This document shows positions 2,781 through 62,539 of a DNA stretch of 64,000 bases, in pieces (the stretch's first letter is position 1; the number at the start of each line of letters is the position of its first letter). The position numbers and the translations under genes were made by a program. The notes beneath the pieces are model-generated. The model was not told the DNA's origin and ran no database searches. It saw nothing but the letters and a program-made list of their open reading frames with translations. This stretch comes from a virus (Duplodnaviria > Caudoviricetes): the IMG/VR virus record IMGVR_UViG_2617271079_000001, positions 1 through 64,000 of that record; one strand, given 5' to 3'.

Positions 2781-2903
2781 TATTGTTGTTCTACTTAACT
2801 ATACCATTTCTCCCAGAGTGGGAAAGTCGCAAATTGTCAAAAAATAATTGTCTTTTTTCGACATTCTTATCGAATGTTGTCGAATAGAGACAATTAGTGA
2901 TAA

Positions 2904-3254
2904 TTATTCATCTTTTTTAGGGTCGAAAGAAGTTGCAATTCTGGCCCACTGCCTAACTTGTTCTGGTGTAATTCCATCTTTTTCAAGTTCTTCGCCAATA
3001 ATTAGCCACTTTAGTCCTTCTTTTTTTGCATCTTCAGGTGGTTCGATTTTATATTTATTAGAAAGCAAATCGCCTACATCTACATTTAAAACTGATGCAA
3101 TCTTATTGAGCATTTCCAATGAAGGATCTACTTTTTCGTTTTCCAATTTGGAGATAAACGATTTACTTACACCACCAACTTTAGTACCTAATTCTTCTTG
3201 GGTTAGATTTCTTAGAAGTCTATTTTGTTTTATCCTCTTCCCAAAACCTTCCAT
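2904..3254 (-). CDS. XRE-family CI-like repressor (no S24 autopeptidase domain)
   Basis: HTH LTQEELGTKVGGVSKSFISKLEN; divergent from cro. Confidence 0.85.
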   Translation of the reverse strand: MEGFGKRIKQNRLLRNLTQEELGTKVGGVSKSFISKLENEKVDPSLEMLNKIASVLNVDVGDLLSNKYKIEPPEDAKKEGLKWLIIGEELEKDGITPEQVRQWARIATSFDPKKDE

Positions 3255-3382
3255 AATTTACCACCTCACAACGACAAACTTTATTATCACTTCTCTATTA
3301 TGCTTTATTTTGCCTATAGTCATCAAGAATAAATAGCGTTAACTAAAGTGAACTAAAATTAATTAAAATTAATTATCATAAA

Positions 3383-11916: not shown

Positions 11917-12345
11917 GTGAGAACAATTAAGTTCAATTTCTATAATACCCGGACGAATAAGTACACGAGGTGGGGAGATGCAAATGCTGCTTTACCACTG
12001 ATGGCATTCGAGACTCATGATCATATACATTTCCTTCAATACACAGGTGTCCAAGACAAGAATGGTCATGAAATTGTTGAAGGAGACATTCTTAAGTACT
12101 CAGCATACTTTCAGAGTTCTATTGGAGCCGTCAGGTTTGGAGTATATAAACAGGATGGCAGCGGCGATGAGTATGAACCAACCGATTGTCTCGGGTTTTA
12201 TATTGATTGCTTAGAAAAAGAAAAACAGCATGAATTTGGTGGACTGGTCATCCCAAGTTTCCGACATAACACTTCCTTAGTGGAACATGAAAAACTCGAA
12301 ATCATCGGTAATATTTTTGAAAACCATGACTTGGTGAAATCATGA
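11917..12345 (+). CDS. YopX-family protein
   Basis: LQYTGVQDKNGHEIVEGDI...EIIGNIFEN. Confidence 0.85.
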   Translation: MRTIKFNFYNTRTNKYTRWGDANAALPLMAFETHDHIHFLQYTGVQDKNGHEIVEGDILKYSAYFQSSIGAVRFGVYKQDGSGDEYEPTDCLGFYIDCLEKEKQHEFGGLVIPSFRHNTSLVEHEKLEIIGNIFENHDLVKS

Positions 12346-12887
12346 GCACAATCAATCAGCAATATCTCCAGTTAAGAAACCTCATCAAGAATAATTCGCA
12401 TAGAGAAATCGTTGTAGTGTGCATAGGAACCGATCGCTCTACCGGTGATTCCCTTGGCCCTCTGGTCGGCACAATCCTCCAAGACAAGCGACTTAAACAA
12501 ATTCATGTACTCGGAACGATTGATGATCCCGTACATGCGGTGAATTTACAATCCACCTTGGTTAATATAAGCAATCAATTCCGCAATCCATATGTAATAG
12601 GGGTCGATGCCTCATTAGGGAGATTAAAGGATGTTGGTGAGATTTTAGTGAGCGATTCACCACTTAGGCCAGGAGTTGGCGTGGGTAAGGAGCTCCCGGA
12701 AGTAGGGGAATGCCATATTACCGGAACGGTAAATGTAGGCGGGTATATGGAATTCTTTGTGCTACAAAATACCAGGTTGAGCACAGTGATGAAAATGGCC
12801 AATGAAATAGCTTTTCTAATCAAGATGGTTGATAAATACCTTTCAAGGAAAAACAGGACCATGCTCGAAGTAGCTGCTTCAAAATAG
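12342..12887 (+). CDS. yyaC: YyaC-like spore protease (GPR/HybD fold)
   Basis: VVVCIGTDRSTGDSLGPLVG, PVHAVNL, DASLG, PGVGVGKELP, LQNTRL. Confidence 0.88.
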   Translation: MSTINQQYLQLRNLIKNNSHREIVVVCIGTDRSTGDSLGPLVGTILQDKRLKQIHVLGTIDDPVHAVNLQSTLVNISNQFRNPYVIGVDASLGRLKDVGEILVSDSPLRPGVGVGKELPEVGECHITGTVNVGGYMEFFVLQNTRLSTVMKMANEIAFLIKMVDKYLSRKNRTMLEVAASK

Positions 12888-15609: not shown

Positions 15610-16302
15610 ATGCAAAAAAATTACTACGCAATTATCCCGGCCAACGTCCGTTATGACAATGACCTTACACCGAATGCGAAATTGCTTTATGGAGAGATCA
15701 CTGCCCTTTGTAACGAACGAGGGTACTGTTGGGCCGGAAATTCCTACTTCTCAGATCTATACAAAAAAGATAAGAGCACAATTAAAAGATGGATTAAGCA
15801 GCTTGAAGATAAAGGCTACATCACCCGGGAGGTTAAGTACAAAGAGGGTGGGTTCGAAATTGAGGCTAGGTGGATTCAATTATGCACCGGGGGTGAGGTC
15901 AAAAATACACCTACCCCTAGTGTTAAAAACGAGCCAGATAATAATACATCTTTTAATACTACATCTTTTAATACTACATCTAATATAACTACTACTAATA
16001 CAGCCTTCCAGTTTTACGAACAGAATTTCGGAATGATGTCTCCTCACATCATCGAGGACATGAATGCATGGGTTGAAGATTTTAACGAACAGGAAGAGAT
16101 CATAATCCAGGCTTTAAAAATCGCTATAGACCGGAATAAGCGAAATTGGGGCTATACAAAAGCCATTTTAAAAGATTGGCATTCAAAAGGCGTTAAAACA
16201 TTATCTGATATCGAAGCGTTGGATAATGAGAACAAGGCTAAAGGAAGTGTACGAAATGAAGTCGTTCAAGGAAGCGGTGACCAATATTCAAATCTCTTCT
16301 AG
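15610..16302 (+). CDS. replication initiator (HTH + DnaD domain)
   Basis: YYAIIPANVRYD...GYCWAGN; WGYTKAILKDW. Confidence 0.88.
   Translation: MQKNYYAIIPANVRYDNDLTPNAKLLYGEITALCNERGYCWAGNSYFSDLYKKDKSTIKRWIKQLEDKGYITREVKYKEGGFEIEARWIQLCTGGEVKNTPTPSVKNEPDNNTSFNTTSFNTTSNITTTNTAFQFYEQNFGMMSPHIIEDMNAWVEDFNEQEEIIIQALKIAIDRNKRNWGYTKAILKDWHSKGVKTLSDIEALDNENKAKGSVRNEVVQGSGDQYSNLF
15939..16000. repeat. AT-rich tandem repeats in initiator gene (probable origin)
   Basis: TAATAC(TAC)ATCTTT repeated about three times. Confidence 0.55.
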
Positions 16303-43407: not shown

Positions 43408-45483
43408 ATGAGACTGGATAAACTCCATAATTTCTCCGGGATAAAACAGGGTGACACCAAGAGAGTGTTCCGCCTTCAAGCACTAGATGACGACGAATCA
43501 CCCATTAGCCTTACTGGATATAACAGCGTAAAAGTGGTCATAGGTAACGATAAAGGAAAATTATTAGAGTTAACACCAACACTCGAAGCTCAAACGGGTG
43601 TTTTTTCTTTTTCTTTTGACGCTGATGATCTTATTGGCAATGGAGAAATGAAATTAGAACTTCATCTCTCTGATTCCAACGGGAAAGTTAATATCTTGCC
43701 GGAAAGAGGATATTACGAGTTTAAGGTGGAGAAAAGCCTCGATACACTTCAAGGAAGTAATGTTTCGAGTTACACCTTGAATTATTTTATGACTGAATTT
43801 GAAAAGAAAAATACAGTACTGCAAGACGTAGCTGATGAAGCTATTACTACTGCTAATCAAGCCAAAGAAACTTCTGACAGCGTAAGAACAGAACTGGATG
43901 CTGTAGTCGGGAGAGAAACAGATTCCGATGCTATGTCTCGCCAGGCAGCGGTCAATGCTTCAGGTGTTGATAAGGTAAATCTAAAGCAAAGACTTGATGA
44001 TGATTACAACAAAGTTAATGAACTCTTGGCAGAAACGGTGAAAGAGCGTGGAGTCAATATATACAAGCATGAGGACACTATCCCAAATAAAAATGTAGCC
44101 GCAACACCTGCCGAATGGAATTGGACAACAGCGATACAACTTATACTTGACGCTGGTAAAGTCGTGTTGTTGCCTGAAGGGACATTTAGCCATCATTCCC
44201 TGAACTTATTGCCGGAAAGCGCCATTGTTGGTGTCGGTGTCCATAAGACGAAATTGAAATATCTCTCTTCAACAGGGAAAGCAATAAATGCCGTTGATTC
44301 TCCGAAATTTTTGTTAGCTAACTTTACTTTGATTGGTCAAGGTGGTTCGGCGACAGACACTGGAAACGACGGTATTTTTGTTTCGTCTGCTAAAACATCC
44401 GAGGCTGAATACACGAACAGATCGTGGGTTATTCAAGGTATCCGCATCGAGTCATTTGGTGGAACGGCTTTTAACGTAGAAAAATGCATATCTCCGGGCG
44501 GTGCTTGGGGTCGTACCGGGCAATTAATGAACCTCCAAGCCTATAACTGTTATCGCGGATTCAAATTCGGCATTCGTGGAGAGTACACGGAAAGCTTAAA
44601 TCTGATGGCTTGGGCGTGTATATGGGGAATTGAAATCGCAGCCGGCAATACTAAAATCACAAACTCGCAGTTTGACGACAACGCAAATGGAGCTAAGTTA
44701 ACCGGAGGAACGAATAATGGTCACGGGCAATTCATTGGATGCTCGTTTAACCACAATGACGGATATTGTGTGTTATTGGATGGTGTTTCGTACGGTCATG
44801 TTTTCAATGGTTGTGCGTTTTATACCGGCGAACTTACGGTTAAAAGTTCAGCAGGGGTTATATTTGTTGGGGGCTTACTGGGTCCGAATAAAATAACACT
44901 TGATAGTAACACAGGCGCTACATTATTTGACGCTATGCATGTTAGGGAAGATTCTGTTTCTACGATAAATAAAATCGGGACTAATATTTATAAATTCACC
45001 AACTGCATTGAACGAAACACTGGATTATCTAAACTGAACAACTACGACTGTACAGCGTTGATACTGAGAAGAAGCGCGAACGCAACATACACGGCGAGTC
45101 CCATCAAGGTGGCTATGACGGTTCGAGACTTAGAGGTATTCAGAGGTTACGACTACTCTTATCGTTATTCTTCAAACCAATATACTGTCGGCGAGAAAGG
45201 TATTTATGAAATCGCCTTTTCGTTAGACTACTTAATTAGCAGTGGTTCCGGTGTTCAATTAGCACAGATTAATAAAAACGGAGCAGTCATCGCTTCTAGT
45301 CAATTAGCGCCAAAGACAGGGGGAGCAAGCGGAGTTGTAAAGACGACCGTTCTACTTGATGTTGGCGACATCGTATATCCTCAACTATCGGATACTGACA
45401 TTGCGACAGGTACAAGGCAGGTAGTCGCTAGTCCAGAAACGTATTTTACTATGACGCTAGTGCAACGTGTTCCTGCGGTTTAG
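43408..45483 (+). CDS. receptor-binding tailspike: BppU-like N-terminus plus pectate-lyase-like beta-helix
   Basis: IKQGDT N-domain; WTTAIQLILDAGKVVLLPEGTF; N/G-rich beta-helix rungs. Confidence 0.75.
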   Translation: MRLDKLHNFSGIKQGDTKRVFRLQALDDDESPISLTGYNSVKVVIGNDKGKLLELTPTLEAQTGVFSFSFDADDLIGNGEMKLELHLSDSNGKVNILPERGYYEFKVEKSLDTLQGSNVSSYTLNYFMTEFEKKNTVLQDVADEAITTANQAKETSDSVRTELDAVVGRETDSDAMSRQAAVNASGVDKVNLKQRLDDDYNKVNELLAETVKERGVNIYKHEDTIPNKNVAATPAEWNWTTAIQLILDAGKVVLLPEGTFSHHSLNLLPESAIVGVGVHKTKLKYLSSTGKAINAVDSPKFLLANFTLIGQGGSATDTGNDGIFVSSAKTSEAEYTNRSWVIQGIRIESFGGTAFNVEKCISPGGAWGRTGQLMNLQAYNCYRGFKFGIRGEYTESLNLMAWACIWGIEIAAGNTKITNSQFDDNANGAKLTGGTNNGHGQFIGCSFNHNDGYCVLLDGVSYGHVFNGCAFYTGELTVKSSAGVIFVGGLLGPNKITLDSNTGATLFDAMHVREDSVSTINKIGTNIYKFTNCIERNTGLSKLNNYDCTALILRRSANATYTASPIKVAMTVRDLEVFRGYDYSYRYSSNQYTVGEKGIYEIAFSLDYLISSGSGVQLAQINKNGAVIASSQLAPKTGGASGVVKTTVLLDVGDIVYPQLSDTDIATGTRQVVASPETYFTMTLVQRVPAV

Positions 45484-45764
45484 GACTATACTACGCAACA
45501 AACGGAGTGCCTCATCGCTAGCTCTATTTATGCCCACAAAAGGAGGAATGGAGATGAAGAAGTTTGGATTTGTTTGTAGTTTATGTGGAAGTAAGGATAT
45601 CACGATAATGGGCGGAGGGAGAATATATGATATAGAAATATCGTGTGATAATTGTTCAAATACCGCCCATCACTCCGACGAAGATTTTACGGAGAGGACA
45701 CTATAGTTCATAAAAATCCCATCCCATCCCCCTCTATTTTGTTAGAATAAAATCAGAAAGGGGG

Positions 45765-46007
45765 ATGTCCATGATCGAGGTAATTCTAGACCACTCAACT
45801 GAGGAAGACTATTTTGTGATTTCATCTGTTTCAGTAAACATTAAAGATGAACAGGAAAAGGCACGAGTGAAAAAGGTGGTCGCAGATCACAATTTAGAAG
45901 GATCCCTAGTTGATGGTGACAGAGGATTGGCATTGAGAATTGCGGATGTTCTCGGAGTCAATGTTCAGCTTATCGACATTGATACCCAAGAAATCGATTT
46001 AATGTAA
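45765..46007 (+). CDS. hypothetical moron protein
   Basis: RBS; followed by terminators. Confidence 0.55.
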   Translation: MSMIEVILDHSTEEDYFVISSVSVNIKDEQEKARVKKVVADHNLEGSLVDGDRGLALRIADVLGVNVQLIDIDTQEIDLM

Positions 46008-46171
46008 TCAGAACAAAGGAAAAAGAGCATTCAGAATTTACCTGAGTGCTCTTTTTTATAGTTAATATGCTCCTTCAGGGGGCTTTTTTCTTTTTCCTAA
46101 AAGGAGGTGATGACTGACATGAAAATAGAGAGGGGGCGGTTTTATTGGGAACTTCAGGGGAGGAAGCAAAC

Positions 46172-46423
46172 ATGAACAACTATGAAAAAGATATTGTGGA
46201 AATGAAAAGCGATATAAAGCTACTTGAAAAAGAAGTAAGTGACCTTAAAACCACCACTACAAGGCATGACGAGCAAATTACCACATTGAATAACACTTTA
46301 AAAAAGATTGATGACAATACTACTTGGATAAAGAGAACTATAATAGGGGCAATATTTACGGCAATCACTTCTGGTGTAATCGGAGGAGCGATTGCTATTT
46401 TTTATGGATTTGTTCAAAAATGA
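46172..46423 (+). CDS. XhlA-like lysis protein
   Basis: Coiled coil, NTTWIKRTIIGA, C-terminal TM. Confidence 0.85.
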   Translation: MNNYEKDIVEMKSDIKLLEKEVSDLKTTTTRHDEQITTLNNTLKKIDDNTTWIKRTIIGAIFTAITSGVIGGAIAIFYGFVQK

Positions 46424-46438
46424 TGAGGAGGAATCACA

Positions 46439-46711
46439 TTGATCAACTGGAAAATCAGGTTTCTTAATAAAACGTTTTTGCTGCAAGTGTTAGGAGCGCT
46501 ATTCCTTCCCCTTTTGGCTTATCAGGGATTGGCCATGGAGGATCTAACCACGTGGTCATCAGTAGGAGAATTGTTCTTAAATGCGTTTACCAACCCATAC
46601 TTATTAGCAATTACTGCCTGGTCGATTTTCAATGCAGTCACTGATCCAACTGTAAAAGGAATTGGTGATAGTCTTCAAGCCAAAGGTTACAAGGTACCTA
46701 AGGAAAAGTAA
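46439..46711 (+). CDS. holin (phi LC3-like)
   Basis: MINWKIRFLNKTF...DPTVKGIGDS. Confidence 0.9.
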   Translation: MINWKIRFLNKTFLLQVLGALFLPLLAYQGLAMEDLTTWSSVGELFLNAFTNPYLLAITAWSIFNAVTDPTVKGIGDSLQAKGYKVPKEK

Positions 46712-46758
46712 GAGCTGCCTTTTGGGTGGCTCTTTTATTTTGAAAGGAGAAGATTTAT

Positions 46759-47655
46759 ATGCCAACAGTTATTCTAGATCCAGGGCATGGAACTGACACG
46801 TACGAGAATGGTGGAGGTAAAGGGGTTAAGGTAGGAGGGAAAGTTTACGAAGAACATGACTTTAATTCTGATGTTGCCGTTCGAGTCGAGAAGATTCTAA
46901 AAGCACATGGAGTGAAAGTGGTATTTAGCCAAAAGCCTTATTCAAAGGATGTAAGTCTTACTTCCAGAACAAACCTAGCGAAAAGGATAATCCCGAATAT
47001 GTTCGTTTCCCTCCACGCCAATGGGAGTTCTGATCCGGATGTTGAGGGTATTTGCGTATTTGCATGGGAAGGGGCAAAAAACTCTAATCGAATGGCTGAT
47101 TTAGTTGTCAAACATATGAAAGAAGCCGGTATGAAAACACATGGGAGCGGAGAGCATGCGTCCACGTACAATTCTTGGACAAACCTTCACATCACTAGGG
47201 AGCTAGCAAAAGCGAATTTACCAGGAATCTTGATTGAACATGGATTTATGAATAATAAGGTGGACTTCGAGAACATCTTTGGTAAGAATGCCAATTCATA
47301 TAGACAGAAATGTGCAATTGCCGATTCAAAAGCGATCCTTGAATACCTTGGGATCAAATACAAAGGAGAAGCTACAACTCAACAAAAACCAAAGGAGGAA
47401 GAAGAAGTGATAAAAATGGCGGTAGTGGTATATTCAGATGCAGATTTAAGCGTAGGGTATGATTTAGCGAACGAAAAGAAGTGTGGTCTTTACAACCGTA
47501 AGTCCCTAGCGAATGAAGCGCTGAAAATTAACGAGCTCATGGTTGTCGGCGGACCGGCGGAAGGACTTGAGAAGAAGACCAACCGTGTCATTGATCTTTC
47601 TGGTACTGATCGGTGGGATACGCGCAAGAAGGTCATTCACTATCTAGGTAAGTAA
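46759..47655 (+). CDS. endolysin, N-acetylmuramoyl-L-alanine amidase (Amidase_3)
   Basis: LDPGHG, FVSLHANG, ILIEHGF; C-terminal wall-binding-like LSGTDRWDT. Confidence 0.93.
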   Translation: MPTVILDPGHGTDTYENGGGKGVKVGGKVYEEHDFNSDVAVRVEKILKAHGVKVVFSQKPYSKDVSLTSRTNLAKRIIPNMFVSLHANGSSDPDVEGICVFAWEGAKNSNRMADLVVKHMKEAGMKTHGSGEHASTYNSWTNLHITRELAKANLPGILIEHGFMNNKVDFENIFGKNANSYRQKCAIADSKAILEYLGIKYKGEATTQQKPKEEEEVIKMAVVVYSDADLSVGYDLANEKKCGLYNRKSLANEALKINELMVVGGPAEGLEKKTNRVIDLSGTDRWDTRKKVIHYLGK

Positions 47656-47661
47656 AAGTTT

Positions 47662-47697
47662 AGCCCTTCTCAATCGAGAGGGGCCTTTTCTTTTTCT
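47662..47697. terminator. terminator after endolysin
   Basis: GCCCTTCTC-AATC-GAGAGGGGC-CTTTT. Confidence 0.7.
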
Positions 47698-47775
47698 TCT
47701 TCCTTGATCAATTTTGACATTTTATTCACTGTGCAAATGATATCGTAAACTTTCTCCGGATCTAATTCCATCTCT

Positions 47776-48021
47776 TCAAAACGGGAGATGACCTCTACCC
47801 ACGTTTTCTTCATATTCCTTCACCTCATCTTTAATGTCTTCATCCTCATTCACCAGGATCTTTTCCACCAGCATTTCACGGCAACCGTGTTCTCTCCATA
47901 CTTGATACTTCCACTTAGAAGCAAGTTCAGGCAGCTTCTCTCTACTGCATCTAAATTTGTTGAACCTTAAAATGCCTGTGTCTTCAATCCTGATATGTAA
48001 CTTCATGTCAAAATTCTGCAT
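47776..48021 (-). CDS. hypothetical protein
   Basis: RBS GGGGTGA; sigmaA-like TTGCCA-N17-TAACAT upstream. Confidence 0.6.
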   Translation of the reverse strand: MQNFDMKLHIRIEDTGILRFNKFRCSREKLPELASKWKYQVWREHGCREMLVEKILVNEDEDIKDEVKEYEENVGRGHLPF

Positions 48022-48101
48022 ATTTTCACCCCAGAGAAAATGTTATAGGACTTTCCCTAATATGGCAATTCAAATAAATTAAAAATTTCCAAGTCGTACA
48101 T

Positions 48102-48193
48102 GCATAAAAGTGAGCTGCCGCGCATAAGTTGTTAACGTACAACGTGTTAGCAACTTTTTCAGACTCCCCCGGAGAAATCCAGGGGAGTTTTTT
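48102..48193 (+). ncRNA. putative ~60-nt sRNA unit (sigmaE/G-like promoter plus terminator)
   Basis: GCATAAA-N14-CATAAGTT at 48102-48130; strong hairpin with U-tract at 48163-48193; no ORF between. Confidence 0.45.
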
Positions 48194-48218
48194 ATTTGGG
48201 AAAATTTAATTGGGACCT

Positions 48219-48247
48219 GCATTCTTAGGTATGACCGGTCATACCAT
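48219..48247 (+). promoter_or_regulatory. sigmaE/G-like promoter overlapped by a perfect 18-bp palindrome
   Basis: GCATTCT-N14-CATACCAT; GGTATGACCGGTCATACC at 48228-48245. Confidence 0.55.
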
Positions 48248-48280
48248 TAAGTATAGCCAGATAACCAGGGAGGCGATTTG

Positions 48281-48583
48281 ATGAGTAACAAAAATAAAAT
48301 TATCAAATCTGTGTCGTTCAATGTGACTAACGAGGATGATAAAAAGATGCTGAAGCATTTGCTGAAGAGAAACTTCAGTGGTTATGTAAAAAAGTTGATC
48401 ATGAGAGAAATTGAATTAAAAGGTGAGAAAGAAGGAGCGGTTCCTGAATCTAGTGAGACAACGGTCCTGAAAGAAGAAAAGAAATTAACTGCAGCTGAAC
48501 GGCTTGAACAATTAAAAAAGGAGCGGATAGCCGCCCCGGAACGTATTACGTTGAAAGTCGATGGGAAGAATCAAGAATTTTAA
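48281..48583 (+). CDS. RHH-like DNA-binding protein, first gene of accessory operon
   Basis: IKSVSFNV strand then two helices (NFSGYVKKLI); RBS GGGAGG. Confidence 0.6.
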   Translation: MSNKNKIIKSVSFNVTNEDDKKMLKHLLKRNFSGYVKKLIMREIELKGEKEGAVPESSETTVLKEEKKLTAAERLEQLKKERIAAPERITLKVDGKNQEF

Positions 48584-48645
48584 CCAAGGAATGTATTCAC
48601 TGCAAGGCCGATGCCATATCCAACAATTAGCGCAGCAATAAACAT
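48580..48645 (-). CDS. unannotated 21-aa single-TM peptide
   Basis: RBS AAGGAAGTGA; MFIAALIVGYGIGLAVNTFLG*. Confidence 0.65.
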   Translation of the reverse strand: MFIAALIVGYGIGLAVNTFLG

Positions 48646-48674
48646 GTCATCACTTCCTTATGAATGATTGCCTA

Positions 48675-48704
48675 TAGTTTGACCTGTTTATGAATGATTT
48701 ATAC
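48675..48704 (-). promoter_or_regulatory. sigmaF-type promoter for the 21-aa peptide
   Basis: Minus strand GTATA-N15-GGTCAAACTA fits GYATA-N15-GGnnAnAHTR. Confidence 0.65.
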
Positions 48705-48723
48705 ACGAAGGGAGAAGTTGATT

Positions 48724-49068
48724 ATGGCAAGAACAGAAACCATTCCATTCCGTGATTTTATGAAGAATGAGAAGAGATCGGTTCAATTGGACCCTGTAAA
48801 AAAGGTATTGGCTTCCTCGGGATCCATTGCTTTAATGACAATGCCAAGGATGGCGATGGCCGCAGGTGCCGATGCTACCTTTGGTAATGTACATGGAGCG
48901 ATCATGAACGTATTTGATGCTGGGGTTGTATTGGTCATCATCTTCGCGGGCGCTTCCTGGGGCTTGGGGCACCGCACAAAGGCGATTGAAATCTTGATAG
49001 GTGTTTGCTGTGGGTATGTGCTTGCAAGACACGCAGTAGACATTAGGGATTTTCTCAAAGGAATATAA
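48724..49068 (+). CDS. VirB2/TrbC pilin-like membrane protein
   Basis: Long leader ending A-M-A, amphipathic helix, two TM helices around a short basic loop (GHRTK). Confidence 0.55.
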   Translation: MARTETIPFRDFMKNEKRSVQLDPVKKVLASSGSIALMTMPRMAMAAGADATFGNVHGAIMNVFDAGVVLVIIFAGASWGLGHRTKAIEILIGVCCGYVLARHAVDIRDFLKGI

Positions 49069-49078
49069 AATGGCGCAG

Positions 49079-49561
49079 TTATATAACATGCGTCCAACGT
49101 TCCCCGCTTTTTATCTTACTAATAACTGTGTAATGGACTTTGTATATAACCGCAATGTCTTTCAACAACATACCTTTATCAATCAATGTACGTATTTCTC
49201 TTACTTTATCATCGGTCAATTTGGCGTTTGTATGTTCAATTCCTTTAGGTTTATATGGCTTTCTCAATCCTAATTTGTAAGCGTGGATGGTGTTATCTTT
49301 ATATGTGACAATCTCAAGGTTCTCCGGCTTGTTATTAAGTTTACAACCGTCAATATGGTTCACGATCAAGCCGATATTCTTAGCGCCGTATTTAATAAAG
49401 GATATTACTTGATGAACGCCAATTATTTTACCTTTCAACTTTATTTTTTCGTATCCTGGTTTCACTATTTGAGGTTTTCTATTGAGGATTTTTCCATTCT
49501 CATAATCAATATTTAATAAATGTATATAGGTATTTAAGTGTTCATAAGTTTCTTTCTTCAA
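49079..49561 (-). CDS. free-standing HNH homing endonuclease
   Basis: VNHIDGCKLNNKPENLEIVTYKDNTIHA; AKLT...C-terminal HTH. Confidence 0.85.
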   Translation of the reverse strand: MKKETYEHLNTYIHLLNIDYENGKILNRKPQIVKPGYEKIKLKGKIIGVHQVISFIKYGAKNIGLIVNHIDGCKLNNKPENLEIVTYKDNTIHAYKLGLRKPYKPKGIEHTNAKLTDDKVREIRTLIDKGMLLKDIAVIYKVHYTVISKIKSGERWTHVI

Positions 49562-49616
49562 GAAAATACCTCCTTTTGGTTTATTGTACCAAAAGGTATA
49601 TAAAGGAGCAAGTCAT

Positions 49617-58921: not shown

Positions 58922-59080
58922 TAATGCTTCCATAAGTAAAAATTTATGATTCTTTTTAATATTAGGTCAAGAAGAAGACACTTATAAGCATGTTTTGATG
59001 AGTACCATAAGCTACAATAACCATCAAATCTATATTGAACGTAATAGATATTGAAATCTAAAATGAATAGGAGATAAAAT

Positions 59081-60670
59081 ATGATATTAAAATTAGAAGG
59101 TTATGATGGTACATTCAGGGTTGAGGTTAAAGTAGATTATATAAATAATATAATACATGTCCTAGATTTATGGGATCCTAATTCTACATCATTGATTAAT
59201 GGAATTGATCTTAATGAAAACCAACAGAGAATTCTAAACCTCGTTGATATAGATAAGGTGGGGGATCCTGGTTATTGGAGATGGTATATTTATTCTCCGG
59301 GAAAAACAAATGCAGTTTATGATTTTAATAATGGAGAATTTAAAGAAGTTGATAGATACTTGTACGAAGGTTTCTTGGATAAAATAAAAAAGAATGGTTC
59401 ATCAACTTCAAACTATTTCATTGAAGAGATAGAAATAAAAGAATTTAGAAATATTAAAGATTTACATATAAAAATAGATTGTAACGAAAAGAAACACTTA
59501 ATTTTGACTGGGAAAAATGGAAGTGGGAAGACCTCGTTATTATTAGAGTTAAAAAATTATTTTAGGTCTTTTGAAGATGGTAACTTTAAATATCTTAAAA
59601 GTTGGATGGACTCATTACATAATACAAAAAATAGATTATTTGAGATTAGCGCTAATAATATTGAAAATTCAGAAAGTATATTGGTGGAAAAAGAGCAGTT
59701 GCAAAATCACATGAAATCATTAAATAATTCGTTGGATAGATACGGGAAACTTAAACCTGCATTTTCAGAGACATACGAATTATTGGATTCTTATGAAAAC
59801 GGAAATTTTATTATTGCATATTTTGACTCCAAAAGAACTACTAACATGGTTGTTCCTGATTCTATAAGGAAAATTAAATTAAATTTAAAGTATAATGCTG
59901 ATGATCGTCCAAGTAATATATTTATTCAGTATTTAGTAAATATGAAGGCAGAACAAGCATTTGCAAATCAATCTGATAATCAAGATTTAGTGAAAAAAAT
60001 TGATTATTGGTTTGAGAACTTAGAAAGAGCATTTAGCGAGCTTTTTGAAAGTGAAAATTTTAAGCTCGAGTTTGACTTTAAAGAAATGAATTTTTTCATT
60101 AAAGAAAAAAATAAGGCCAAATATTCTTTTGAGCATCTATCAGATGGCTATTCATCTGTAATTAGCATTGTATCTGATATTATGATGAGAATGGAAAACA
60201 AGGTAAATGCAAATGGTATATATAACCTTGAAGGAATAGTATTAATAGATGAATTAGAAACTCATTTACATGTCAGTTTACAGAAGAAAATATTCCCTTT
60301 TTTACTTGCAATATTTCCAAGAATTCAATTTATTGTCACTACTCATTCCCCGTTTGTATTAAGCTCTGCCGAGAATTCGGTAATCTATGATTTAGAGAAT
60401 AATTTACGTATAGAAGATTTAACACCTTATTCTTATGAAGGTATTGTGGAGGGTTACTTTGGAATTGATAAATACTCAAAATCCATAAAAGAAAAGATAG
60501 ACAGATATAAAACACTAATAAATAATTATGAAAACTTAACTGAAGAAGAAGAAGAAGAAGTAATATTAATAAAACGGTATATAAAACAAGTCCCAGATAA
60601 ATTTGCTCAAGAATTAAAACTGAAATTTTATGACCTTGAGCTATTAAGAAGGGAGAAAATGAAAAAATGA
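59081..60670 (+). CDS. Septu PtuA-like ABC/AAA ATPase with extra N-terminal domain
   Basis: TGKNGSGKTS, LSDGY, LIDELETHLH, TTHSPF. Confidence 0.8.
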   Translation: MILKLEGYDGTFRVEVKVDYINNIIHVLDLWDPNSTSLINGIDLNENQQRILNLVDIDKVGDPGYWRWYIYSPGKTNAVYDFNNGEFKEVDRYLYEGFLDKIKKNGSSTSNYFIEEIEIKEFRNIKDLHIKIDCNEKKHLILTGKNGSGKTSLLLELKNYFRSFEDGNFKYLKSWMDSLHNTKNRLFEISANNIENSESILVEKEQLQNHMKSLNNSLDRYGKLKPAFSETYELLDSYENGNFIIAYFDSKRTTNMVVPDSIRKIKLNLKYNADDRPSNIFIQYLVNMKAEQAFANQSDNQDLVKKIDYWFENLERAFSELFESENFKLEFDFKEMNFFIKEKNKAKYSFEHLSDGYSSVISIVSDIMMRMENKVNANGIYNLEGIVLIDELETHLHVSLQKKIFPFLLAIFPRIQFIVTTHSPFVLSSAENSVIYDLENNLRIEDLTPYSYEGIVEGYFGIDKYSKSIKEKIDRYKTLINNYENLTEEEEEEVILIKRYIKQVPDKFAQELKLKFYDLELLRREKMKK

Positions 60671-61371
60671 TATTCTATGAAAAATCTGTACCAGCTCCTG
60701 AGAGTTTAGAGGAAGAAAAGCAAAAAGCAAATGGTACATATTTAATGGAGGATGTTCTTGAACAATTAAAAAAAGATTTTAAAAATAAATGTTATATATG
60801 TGAAAACAATGAACTTACTTCAATAAATGTCGAGCATTTAGTATCCCATCAAGGAGATTTAGAGAAAAAATTCTCTTGGGAAAACTTATTTTGGTCTTGT
60901 TCTCATTGTAATAATATTAAGCTCCAACACTATGATAATATATTGAATTGTACTTTAAGAGAAGATGAAGTAGAGGAAAGCATAAAGATTAAAATAGATC
61001 CTTATCCTAAATCGAAAGTACAAGTAGTTGCAATGAAGAATGACCAAAGAGTGGAAAAAACAGTTGAATTACTAAACAAGGTTTATAATGGTACTACGAT
61101 ATTAAAAACTGAAGAGGCTGAAACAATAAGAAAGAAACTATTAGATGAAATAAGGGATTTTCAATCATTACTTTTTGATTATGATGAATTAGATAAAGAA
61201 GATGAAATGGAACGTAGGGAGATTCATCATTATAAAAATCTTATAAGAAAACACTTAAAAAGTAATTCAGCATACACCGGCTTTAAAAGATGGATAATAA
61301 GAGAAATTCCAGAATTAAGCGATGAATTTGGTCATCTGTTTATGGAATCTAATAATACCCAAGTAAAATAA
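60667..61371 (+). CDS. Septu PtuB-like HNH nuclease
   Basis: CYICE..VEHL..WENLFWSCSHCNNIK; ATGA overlap with the ATPase. Confidence 0.8.
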   Translation: MIFYEKSVPAPESLEEEKQKANGTYLMEDVLEQLKKDFKNKCYICENNELTSINVEHLVSHQGDLEKKFSWENLFWSCSHCNNIKLQHYDNILNCTLREDEVEESIKIKIDPYPKSKVQVVAMKNDQRVEKTVELLNKVYNGTTILKTEEAETIRKKLLDEIRDFQSLLFDYDELDKEDEMERREIHHYKNLIRKHLKSNSAYTGFKRWIIREIPELSDEFGHLFMESNNTQVK

Positions 61372-61585
61372 AAACCCTTCAAGGGTTTTTATTTTAAATA
61401 TCTCTTTGTTTTTTTAAAACCGCATACTCTAAAAACATCTTAAATTTTGGGTTAATCTATTCTAGTTTGAAACTGCAATAAATAATTACCAGTAGTTTTA
61501 CTCCAAAACACAAATAAATATAATTACAAGTAACAGCAGCTTTCAAAATATGAATAATATGAAACTATTATAGGAGCCTCTTAAA

Positions 61586-62539
61586 ATGCAAAAGAAAATG
61601 AACTACTTAATAATCCTTATAGCCACCATCTTAATGGTGGGTTGTGCCGACGTTGAAAATGTATCTACTACTAAGGAAAAAACAGACCAAGAAGTACCCG
61701 CAGCAAATACAAATGAAAATAGTGAGAAAGCAGAACCTAACACTGTTGATGAAGAACCTGTAACAGAAGAGCAAGCACCAGAAGAAACATTAATTGAAAC
61801 AAATGATGAATTGTTCCAGGGATACAAACTTATCGAAGTTGATGGTGGTGATTTGTCGGGAAATCGTGAACCAAACGTCGTAGTCGACATTGGTTTTGAG
61901 GATCGTGAGTATTGGGCGTTTACGAATGAATACGGTCAACTAGTCCGTGTCATTGCTGACGAAATCATTATACAAGATGACAGTAAGGAACCTGTATTAT
62001 CGTCTGGCAGATACTACTCAGATGAGGCAAAAGTTCCTGGTGTCGAAAGTGACACTTTAGATGAAGGACATATCATTGCTGATTCTCTCGGAGGGGTATC
62101 GAATGCTTACAATATCACTCCCCAAGAAAGTACGCTTAACCGACATGGTGATCAAGCTTATATGGAGGACGTAATCCGTAAAGCTGGAGGAGTCACTAAT
62201 TTTGAAGCAATTATCACATATCCAGATACGGACACACAAATCCCTTCAAGTTACCAGTATACCTATACTTTAAAGGGTGAAGAGGTGGTTGATTTCTTTG
62301 ATAACATGAACCCTGATGAAGTAAACGAGTCCCTCGGTTTAACTGAAAGTGAGGCTTCGGATTCACCTTCAACTAGTTCAGACACAAACGGCGATATTTC
62401 AAGTGTTGATACAAACGGTAATGGCCAGGTGACTATTAAAGAAGCAGAAGATGCAGGTTTTAGTATGCCAATAATGAGTGATCATTGGTTATATCCTTAT
62501 ATGCGTGATAATGATGGAGATGGGATGGTAGGGGAGTAA
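61586..62539 (+). CDS. lipoprotein DNA/RNA non-specific endonuclease with Ca-binding C-terminus
   Basis: Lipobox MVG-C; DEGHIIADSLGG..NITPQ..LNR; DTNGNGQ and DNDGDG loops. Confidence 0.82.
   Translation: MQKKMNYLIILIATILMVGCADVENVSTTKEKTDQEVPAANTNENSEKAEPNTVDEEPVTEEQAPEETLIETNDELFQGYKLIEVDGGDLSGNREPNVVVDIGFEDREYWAFTNEYGQLVRVIADEIIIQDDSKEPVLSSGRYYSDEAKVPGVESDTLDEGHIIADSLGGVSNAYNITPQESTLNRHGDQAYMEDVIRKAGGVTNFEAIITYPDTDTQIPSSYQYTYTLKGEEVVDFFDNMNPDEVNESLGLTESEASDSPSTSSDTNGDISSVDTNGNGQVTIKEAEDAGFSMPIMSDHWLYPYMRDNDGDGMVGE

Follow-up and report, generated by a model that had tools for sequence, protein, structure and literature searches.

The provirus record IMGVR_UViG_2617271079_000001 raises the question of whether the strand opposite an SPP1-type early operon carries a gene of its own and, if it does, in which cell that gene would be read. 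We analyzed the first 64 kb of this 93.7-kb IMG/VR record (hereafter, the window), whose provirus is a temperate siphovirus, and asked this question of a minus-strand open reading frame (ORF) of 21 codons, which lies between the SPP1 gene 31 and gene 31.1 homologues. The original prediction, made from these letters, had described a membrane peptide gene that is hidden on the strand antisense to the operon and preceded by a promoter of the forespore type, and the comparative evidence reported below gives that description strong support. We place the probability at roughly 0.55 that the statement holds as a whole, namely that the ORF is a real gene whose product would be a forespore-expressed, glycine-zipper transmembrane (TM) micropeptide tied to the gp31.1/31.2/gp32 module.

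The ORF (48580..48645, minus strand) encodes the 21-aa peptide MFIAALIVGYGIGLAVNTFLG, a predicted single TM helix with a small-xxx-small face (A5/G9/G13/N17) that includes the proposed GxxxG motif as G9xxxG13. The ribosome-binding site that had been described is present as a Shine-Dalgarno (SD) sequence, AAGGAAGTGAT, at 48659..48649, with its GGAAG core 7 nt before the ATG. Further upstream on the same strand, the promoter given as GTATA-N15-GGTCAAACTA is found with its -35 element, GTATA, at 48704..48700 and its -10 element, GGTCAAACTA (GG followed by CAAACTA), at 48684..48675. To these elements we add an intrinsic terminator (48510..48537, minus strand) that the earlier description did not include: a 7-bp G+C stem with a loop of 4 and a T6 run. 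The terminator lies within the last part of the gene 31 homologue's coding sequence, and its hairpin begins 43 nt past the micropeptide stop. Because this G+C hairpin and T6 run follow the ORF, the unit has the appearance of a complete small gene, and since the + strand has no T-run after the hairpin, the terminator should halt minus-strand transcription only. The flanking genes are both on the + strand. The gene 31 homologue (48278..48583; phrog_17574, 101 aa) converges on the micropeptide gene so that the two stop codons overlap by 4 nt, and the gene 31.1 homologue (48724..49068; phrog_5422, 114 aa) encodes a membrane protein.

To compare this junction across genomes, we gathered loci through the gp31.1 homologue, which gave 24 viral contigs, and through a profile search, which gave 14 bacterial genome loci from Bacillus, Anaerobacillus, Paenibacillus, Paenisporosarcina, Neobacillus, Ureibacillus, Fictibacillus and one Bacillota metagenome-assembled genome. 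A hydrophobic ORF of 17-29 codons lies on the opposite strand directly upstream of the gp31.1 gene in 21/24 viral loci, the exceptions being L013, L021 (no upstream DNA) and L023 (neither gap nor ORF), and the same junction holds such an ORF in 12 of the 14 genome loci (not found at L033 and L041). Five of eight GenBank phages carry it, and it is unannotated in all five records. The GBK2 version has 21 aa and is 86% identical to that of the window, the 0105phi7-2 version has 22 aa, and SPP1, 279BB001 and Ray17 have a 17-codon form (L002 3203-3256, minus strand, in SPP1; L003 3222-3275; L047 573-626), which reads MHFFISLLIGYIVGVLV in SPP1. The SPP1 form has the -10 element GGGCATACTA and the SD AAAGGAGGG, overlaps the end of gene 31 except for its first 7 codons, and lies on the strand reported as untranscribed. 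The ORF is absent from PBC1, Carmen17 and Sam46, in which gene 31 overlaps gene 31.1. A purine-rich SD precedes the ORF in every locus whose sequence was inspected, and a crude scan found a hairpin followed by a T-run downstream of the ORF in 19/28 loci; at the B. cereus-group loci the hairpin is present and the T-run is interrupted.

A tblastn search of phages with the 21-aa peptide returned GBK2 only (2 records, E = 3e-3), and the family was instead recovered through its flanking genes and a peptide hidden Markov model (HMM). A degenerate regular expression for the peptide motif matched at the junction in 34 of 41 sources (the window and 33 loci), with one off-target match in 259 kb. The HMM, of 22 positions, was run on the six frames of whole genomes without regard to context; it recovered the known loci at E values of ~1e-6 to 1e-7, and the next match (E = 0.013) fell within a long frame. 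It matched 2/401 genomes of a class sample and 4/104 genomes of a family sample, at junction loci only. Clear gp31 and gp31.1 homologues flank all five of the HMM-found loci that were checked (L048, L050 and L057-L059), and the gp31 match at another, L049, is weak (E 0.027). These context-free results argue that the gene is rare, prophage-borne and confined to the 31/31.1 junction. The sequence comparisons thus show that the ORF, its SD and its promoter motif, and usually its terminator, are kept across diverged phages and prophages of endospore-forming Bacillota; loss of the first three at homologous loci was one of the grounds that the original prediction had named for abandoning it.

To characterize the peptide, we aligned 23 members and obtained the consensus M..IIA...G..IG.LVN.LVG, in which G9 is invariant and I12 and G13 nearly so. 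The small residues and the Asn (positions 5, 9, 13 and 17) share one helix face, and a mean Kyte-Doolittle hydropathy of about 1.9 describes one TM-length helix. The start codon, SD and length of the ORF are kept at the orthologous place across loci. When differences were summed over 12 pairs, the ratio of nonsynonymous to synonymous differences per site (pN/pS) was 0.21 in the ORF frame and 1.13, 2.06, 1.17, 0.41 and 1.62 in the other five frames, the value of 0.41 belonging to the codon-aligned antisense frame, as expected. The window and L008 differ at 15 synonymous and 4 nonsynonymous positions with synonymous sites nearly saturated (pS 0.91); the corresponding counts are 10 and 4 for the window and L020, and 10 and 2 for L009 and L029. 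SPP1 and 279BB001 differ at 8 positions, 6 of them synonymous, 1 a stop-to-stop change and 1 nonsynonymous (Ile to Val). These comparisons show a coding sequence that bears the marks of purifying selection on the peptide, and on this evidence the micropeptide gene is very probably real.

Searches of protein families placed the peptide nowhere in particular. Pfam and NCBIfam searches with 22 peptides gave weak matches to glycine-zipper and TM-segment families (DUF883_C in 7, YtxH in 6), none near the cut-off, and among these 22 members, in which short peptides score little, no Fst, Ibs, TisB, BsrG or other toxin family appeared at E <= 1. PHROGs contained no match to the peptide, and PADLOC (2023 library) assigned 0 families to the peptide, which is very short for such a search, and its seven neighbours.

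We next consider what might read the promoter. The B. subtilis consensus tabulated in PMC3416734, from Wang et al. 2006, is GTATA/GGNAANAMTR for sigmaF and GNATA/CAWAMTA for sigmaG. According to PMC3789822, the two classes resemble each other closely, sigmaF promoters are marked by a G upstream of the -10 element, and the forespore promoter consensus is conserved even in C. difficile. Using spacings of 14-16 nt for sigmaF and 17-18 nt for sigmaG, we find that the -35 element of the window equals the published sigmaF sequence and also fits sigmaG GNATA, and that its -10 element agrees with the sigmaF model at 12/13 and the sigmaG model at 11/11 specified positions. The forespore type that had been proposed for this promoter therefore stands, whereas its assignment to sigmaF alone is too narrow, because the sigmaG consensus fits equally well, with a perfect match to CAWAMTA. 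The pattern GTATA-N14-16-GGNNANAMTR has one match on the two strands of the window, where 0.09 are expected; 8/100 shuffles contained at least one match. The sole other match to GNATA-N17-18-CAWAMTA in the window (12743-12771, +) lies inside the ORF at 12342-12887 and is probably due to chance.

The same promoter type recurs at the other loci. The aligned consensus over 29 non-redundant loci is GG.CATACTA, and it ends 22-40 nt before the ATG in 28/29 of them, mostly at 28-35 nt (at L003 the scan picked a site 64 nt away). Most loci have GTATA, GAATA, GTTTA or GATTA 14-15 nt upstream of the GG, which is 17-18 nt from the CATACTA core. A sigmaF score of at least 11/13 was reached in 17/27 loci versus 76/3702 random 100-nt windows of those loci, and a sigmaG score of at least 10/11 in 13/27 loci versus 52/3702 background windows. 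When six sigma models were compared by the number of loci with a tail probability <= 0.05, sigmaF (17/29) and sigmaG (14/29) led, followed by sigmaK (5/29) and by sigmaB, sigmaA and sigmaE (2/29 each). No Sigma70_r2 (region-2) domain is encoded in the provirus record, in which the matches are of the region-4-like helix-turn-helix type only, including one that falls outside the window and another in the 252-aa ORF that closely precedes the large packaging genes. SPP1 is transcribed by the host polymerase (PMC6316719, section 3.2). Given the lack of a region-2 domain in the record and the use of host polymerase by SPP1, the simplest assumption is that a host sigma factor reads the promoter, and the motif matches suggest that the promoter is probably forespore-specific.

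The predicted transcript would have a short leader of about 15-30 nt, in which a strong SD is exposed. This small RNA would pair with the gap and with the final ~70 nt of gene 31, stopping short of the gp31.1 SD. Section 3.2 of the SPP1 re-annotation (PMC6316719) describes operon mRNA that passes through the 31-31.1 gap as one transcription unit. A search for a conserved sigmaA-type promoter on the + strand, from which a dedicated antisense RNA could arise, found none in 24/28 loci and weak sites elsewhere in 3; the window alone has a weak 9-of-12 sigmaA-type site at the ORF. With no conserved promoter for a dedicated antisense RNA, the operon mRNA would therefore be the sole antisense partner. 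An Rfam scan of 44000-54000 at E <= 1 returned zero families.

We favor the following explanation of these data. The locus would be an autonomous minus-strand unit of about 155-195 nt, comprising promoter, SD, 21 codons and terminator, that is lodged antisense between the homologues of gene 31, predicted to be ribbon-helix-helix (RHH)-like, and gene 31.1, a membrane protein gene, of an SPP1-type early operon. Host forespore sigmaF and/or sigmaG would read its promoter, so that the gene would be silent in vegetative and lytic cells, its opposite orientation would exclude the peptide from the operon mRNA, and it would be switched on only when a phage genome, either a prophage or an entrapped virulent genome, sits in the developing forespore. 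The product would be a bare glycine-zipper/Asn TM helix that enters the inner membrane of the forespore, where it would act by means of its small-xxx-small/Asn face, associating either with itself or with a membrane partner. Head-on transcription and RNA pairing at the 31/31.1 junction would favor mutually exclusive expression of the peptide and of gp31.1/31.2/gp32. For the phage, this could serve to keep an entrapped genome quiet, to alter spore or germination properties, or to control the gp31.1-gp32 machine; the constant linkage of the peptide to the gp31.1/31.2/gp32 module is compatible with the forespore-side partner or inhibitor that was first envisaged. The data suggest that SPP1-like phages may follow a dedicated programme while their DNA resides in the spore.

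Several points weigh against this explanation. The B. cereus-group loci (CACAT) and the SPP1 group (AGTTG/GGTTG) have poor -35 elements, only the 17 and 14 of 29 loci given above lie within the 5% tail of the sigmaF and sigmaG models, and because the loci are related by descent these counts are not independent events; the sigma dependence is itself a matter of motif matching. The gene is dispensable for the module, as it is absent from PBC1, Carmen17, Sam46 and L023 and not found at L033 and L041. The fold of the predicted transcript is unremarkable (z = -0.65). The host range of the phages cannot separate a sporulation function from shared ancestry, because the flanking module is itself confined to phages of spore formers in this data set. 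Finally, in most loci the ORF shares its final 4-63 nt with the 3' end of gene 31, and this overlap could add constraint to the 3' codons of the ORF; at loci with a 4-nt overlap, however, the peptide C-terminus is kept while the gp31 tails differ, which argues that the constraint acts on the peptide.

The module in which the gene lies gives these observations their context. The + strand operon that follows the lysis genes matches phage families of unknown function and encodes, in order, the 101-aa phrog_17574 and 114-aa phrog_5422 proteins, a minus-strand HNH endonuclease, a 245-aa M23 peptidase, a 71-aa ORF and an 852-aa phrog_5156 protein. The last of these (50540..53098, +) is 59% identical to SPP1 gp32, a putative VirB4/TrwB/FtsK-like ATPase, a resemblance that is also noted in the 0105phi7-2 record; against PDB sequences it gave zero matches. 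Section 3.4 of PMC6316719 reports that the gp32 ATPase resembles TrwB, VirB4 and FtsK by HHpred and calls gp31.1/31.2/gp32 a 'potential machine', proposed to be a trans-membrane translocon. The M23 peptidase (49584..50321, +) is fused to a gp31.2 homologue: its C-terminal 88 residues are 51% identical to gp31.2, and its membrane domain spans residues 156-243. In the N-terminal peptidase the HxxxD and HxH motifs look intact, and the fusion would thus add a cell-wall hydrolase to the module. The HNH endonuclease gene (49079-49561, minus strand), inserted between the gp31.1 and M23-gp31.2 genes, splits the operon and is followed by a terminator-like hairpin at 49596-49572 (minus strand).

The gene 31 product is probably a small DNA-binding regulator of the RHH type. 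Its N-terminal 50 residues are conserved and its tail is variable, and profiles of gp31-like sequences found no match in PDB or Pfam. An AlphaFold2 model with a mean predicted local distance difference test score of 68 consists of an extended stretch followed by two helices; Foldseek found no match to it, and a VIA wide search with the same model gave weak matches (Z 3.0-4.1), many of them to RHH antitoxins and repressors, which are suggestive only. The Sam46 homologue is annotated CopG/Arc/MetJ.

To place the module by host, we collected gp32-like ATPases, which occur in 105 phage records. All except one, a Microcystis phage, come from endospore-former genera (104 records: Bacillus 93, Geobacillus 4, Lysinibacillus 2, phage D6E 2, and Alicyclobacillus, Brevibacillus and Terrisporobacter 1 each), and none of the 105 comes from a Staphylococcus, Listeria, Streptococcus, Lactococcus or Enterococcus phage. 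The ATPase may mark a sporulation-linked phage function, or this distribution may merely reflect a shared gene pool. In distant modules, whose ATPases are 22-25% identical, a small hydrophobic ORF on the opposite strand likewise precedes the membrane-protein gene, with sigmaF/G-like elements. This antisense ORF has 28 aa in D6E (GTATA-N15-GGTGATAATA), 26 aa in TP-84 (-10 CATACTA), 25 aa in vB_BceS-M2 (GGTTAAATTA) and 26 aa in 035JT001, and a less hydrophobic one of 21 aa is found in the clostridial Terrisporobacter phage TPDSL_ph2 (GTATA-N15-GTAAAAGCTA). The distant module of SPO1 has no antisense small ORF, and that of BCPST gives an ambiguous picture. In SP-10, the equivalent gap holds a small TM ORF on the + strand (L068 about 2040-2130), and the sigma-factor genes gp199-gp200 (L068 334-1201) lie directly upstream of the module. 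In D6E and SPO1 the gp32-like ATPase gene is a few genes downstream of a partition-type gene, D6E ORF22 (L065 1031-1867) and SPO1 gp27.9 (L067 471-1490); gp27.9 is described as ParM-like, and Par-like elements are discussed in connection with spore entrapment (PMC12991052).

These features invite a bolder proposal, to which we assign a small chance: the module could be an apparatus for sporulating hosts, moving or retaining phage DNA across the sporulation septum for example, and the peptide its forespore-side switch, leading to dormancy and to revival at germination. Entrapped phage genomes can revive at germination. In this proposal, sigmaF/G would report the arrival of the genome in the forespore, and the peptide together with head-on transcription would shut down or re-purpose the machine.

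Other explanations start from the same unit. The main rival, though an unlikely one, takes the gene as a sensor and effector of the NonA kind, with a promoter read, in place of or in addition to host sigmaF/G, by the sigmaF/G-like factor of a superinfecting phage and a peptide that aborts that infection. It is prompted by two reports. The small TM protein NonA of SPbeta is under the control of SP10-encoded sigma factors (PMC8270828), and phages of spore formers often encode sigF/sigG homologues, of which ELDg169 turns on hundreds of sporulation genes (PMC9429907). This rival involves the same promoter class as the favored explanation and agrees with the presence of the gene in prophages. Against it, the gene is kept under purifying selection in virulent SPP1-type phages, where a prophage-style defence makes less sense, PADLOC matches neither the peptide, very short for such a search, nor its neighbours, and the strict linkage to one operon junction differs from the habit of defence morons, which usually move.

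A type I toxin-like peptide had been among the first suggestions for this product. Here the peptide would damage the membrane and the complementary operon mRNA would be the antitoxin, an arrangement that would stabilize the prophage or kill cells that cease to express the operon. The gene does encode a small hydrophobic prophage peptide, convergent and overlapping with a + strand transcript, the weak Pfam glycine-zipper similarity fits a pore-former, and the type I toxin genes of B. subtilis reside on prophages (PMC10730256). We nevertheless consider a toxin improbable, because a conserved, dedicated sigmaA promoter for an antisense RNA was not found (none in 24/28 loci). Most members also lack a charged C-terminal tail, which the toxins of B. 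subtilis and C. difficile described in PMC10730256, of 29-59 aa, possess. The short leader with its exposed strong SD is not a long structured 5' UTR (untranslated region), the promoter is of a developmental rather than a constitutive type, no toxin family of Pfam, NCBIfam or PHROGs was matched at E <= 1, where such short peptides score little, and killing of the forespore would hurt prophage and entrapped phage alike.

A similarly low standing goes to a third possibility, in which the sigmaF/G match is coincidental and sigmaA, sigmaB or an extracytoplasmic function (ECF) sigma factor reads the promoter of a vegetative peptide for lysogenic conversion or superinfection exclusion. Small membrane proteins of prophages often mediate exclusion, the promoters of sigmaB, sigmaF and sigmaG resemble each other, and the weak -35 element at several loci would agree with another reader. 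The comparison of sigma models speaks against this, with sigmaA and sigmaB not enriched (2/29 each), as does the fact that the most conserved bases (CA.A.TA after GG) are those that define sigmaG/sigmaF -10 elements; the gene is, moreover, retained in virulent phages.

Less probable still is a purely RNA product, in which the ORF would be incidental and a cis-antisense RNA made specifically in the forespore would silence the early operon. The original prediction had allowed for a compartment-specific antisense silencer, and such a silencer would fit the convergent transcription and the complementarity to the operon mRNA at the 31/31.1 junction; it may well coexist with the peptide. As the sole product, however, RNA is contradicted by the frame-specific purifying selection on the peptide, by the conserved ATG, SD, length and stop, and by conservation of the peptide where synonymous sites are nearly saturated (pS 0.91, window versus L008). 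That the ORF is a chance one, as its very short length and the many 20-aa ORFs nearby (142 ORFs of at least 20 aa in the surrounding 9 kb) could suggest, is refuted by all of the comparative evidence, as far as sequence goes, and can be given almost no weight.

A 12-bp direct repeat had been described at the promoter, and it is indeed present: two copies of TTATGAATGATT, at 48658-48669 and 48688-48699, flank the -10 element. The window has two loci with close 12-mer direct repeats, of which this is one, against 0.43 matches per window in Markov shuffles; the sole other close direct repeat of at least 12 nt is a 15-bp tandem unit at 15945-15981. The repeat is not conserved, since promoter-region repeats with a shuffle P <= 0.03 occur in 3/22 loci and at differing positions. 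The promoter-leader region of L008 has ACAAACAAC twice and the promoter region of L024 has TATAACCTC twice, and both differ from the window 12-mer in sequence and position. By these comparisons the 12-bp repeat is lineage-specific. We considered it as an operator for the RHH-like gp31 and rejected that role, as such repeats occur in just 3/22 loci and their positions differ.

Elsewhere in the window, the provirus has a tyrosine integrase gene (1524-2648), RecT, further HNH genes and long putative structural ORFs (the long ORFs taken by length only). The lysis cassette (46145-47655, +) includes an Amidase_3 endolysin gene (46759-47655); the micropeptide gene lies 0.9 kb downstream of this cassette, on the opposite strand and with its own promoter, and we do not count it as a holin or other cassette member. 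Spo0A boxes are not enriched in the window (6 versus 9.0 expected). Two inverted Spo0A-box heptamers, TGTCGAA, at 2857-2863 (minus strand) and 2878-2884 (+) are 21 bp apart, at the 5' end of the ORF at 2848-3336 (+) and about 200 bp from the start of the integrase gene. Downstream of the module are genes for a large serine recombinase (54772-56223, minus strand), an AAA_21/AbiEii-like ATPase (59081-60670, +) and a protein with a non-specific endonuclease domain (61586-62539, +), and the region from 54772 to 62539 could represent another mobile element, or else a defence island, beside the prophage.

What would this gene mean if the favored explanation is right? We know of no phage gene with expression specific to the forespore of the infected cell, and this would be the first. 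The micropeptide gene is present in both temperate and virulent phages of Bacillus, Geobacillus, Paenibacillus, Neobacillus, Anaerobacillus and Ureibacillus, with a clostridial phage as a possible further carrier, and it would open a first way into the function of the enigmatic gp31-gp32 module. On the light strand of SPP1 it would be the first gene, and it would account for the unexplained 31-31.1 gap of the SPP1 re-annotation, in which the micropeptide gene went unnoticed; section 3.2 of that work (PMC6316719) reports heavy-strand transcription only and lists the gap as non-coding. Our literature search found no description of the ORF, which the supplementary transcriptome and peptidome tables for SPP1 could still list. 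The gene is an example of how genes of 17-29 codons slip past annotation in well-studied phages. A forespore role is unexpected for a virulent model phage, and SPP1 with B. subtilis is a fully tractable system. Phage genomes are known to be trapped in endospores, with host Spo0A boxes and Par-like elements as the determinants described in PMC12991052; should the peptide act as a switch, it would be the first phage-encoded component of siphovirus 'virospore' formation, and one present in the model phage SPP1.

The gene is new as a phage gene apparently wired to the host sporulation programme and as a phage micropeptide, two kinds that both have precedents, and the product possibly works like a small sporulation membrane protein or else like a type I toxin. 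The sspC gene of SPbeta is sigmaG-dependent, sprB is sigmaE/K-dependent, and SP10 sigma factors turn on nonA (PMC8270828). SspC offers a close parallel, as its gene is carried by a phage and obeys the forespore transcription programme of the host (PMC8270828), and differs in being a soluble DNA-binding small acid-soluble protein with host paralogues and a known function and sigma dependence, whereas the micropeptide is a membrane helix of 17-29 aa that belongs to no family, occurs also in virulent phages, and has a regulation deduced from its promoter. NonA is, as predicted for the micropeptide, a small TM phage protein under an alternative sigma factor rather than sigmaA; it answers SP10 sigma factors and aborts SP10 infection, whereas the micropeptide promoter matches the host sigmaF/G consensus and its gene is fixed at one junction, virulent phages included. 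The type I toxins (BsrG, TxpA, BsrE, BsrH and YonT, and the Fst/Ibs-like peptides) share with it a small hydrophobic prophage peptide whose gene overlaps a convergent transcript, but the micropeptide is shorter and usually uncharged, has a developmental promoter and a short leader, and yielded neither an antitoxin RNA promoter nor a family match. The host micropeptides SpoVM and CmpA act at the forespore surface during sporulation (PMC10730256) and are comparable in that respect; both are encoded by the host and produced in the mother cell under sigmaE, SpoVM has an amphipathic rather than a TM helix, and we saw no sequence similarity. Nearest of all in position is the gp31.1/gp31.2/gp32 'potential machine' of SPP1, inside whose module the micropeptide gene lies at every locus where we found it, set apart from its neighbours by the other strand and by a promoter of its own.

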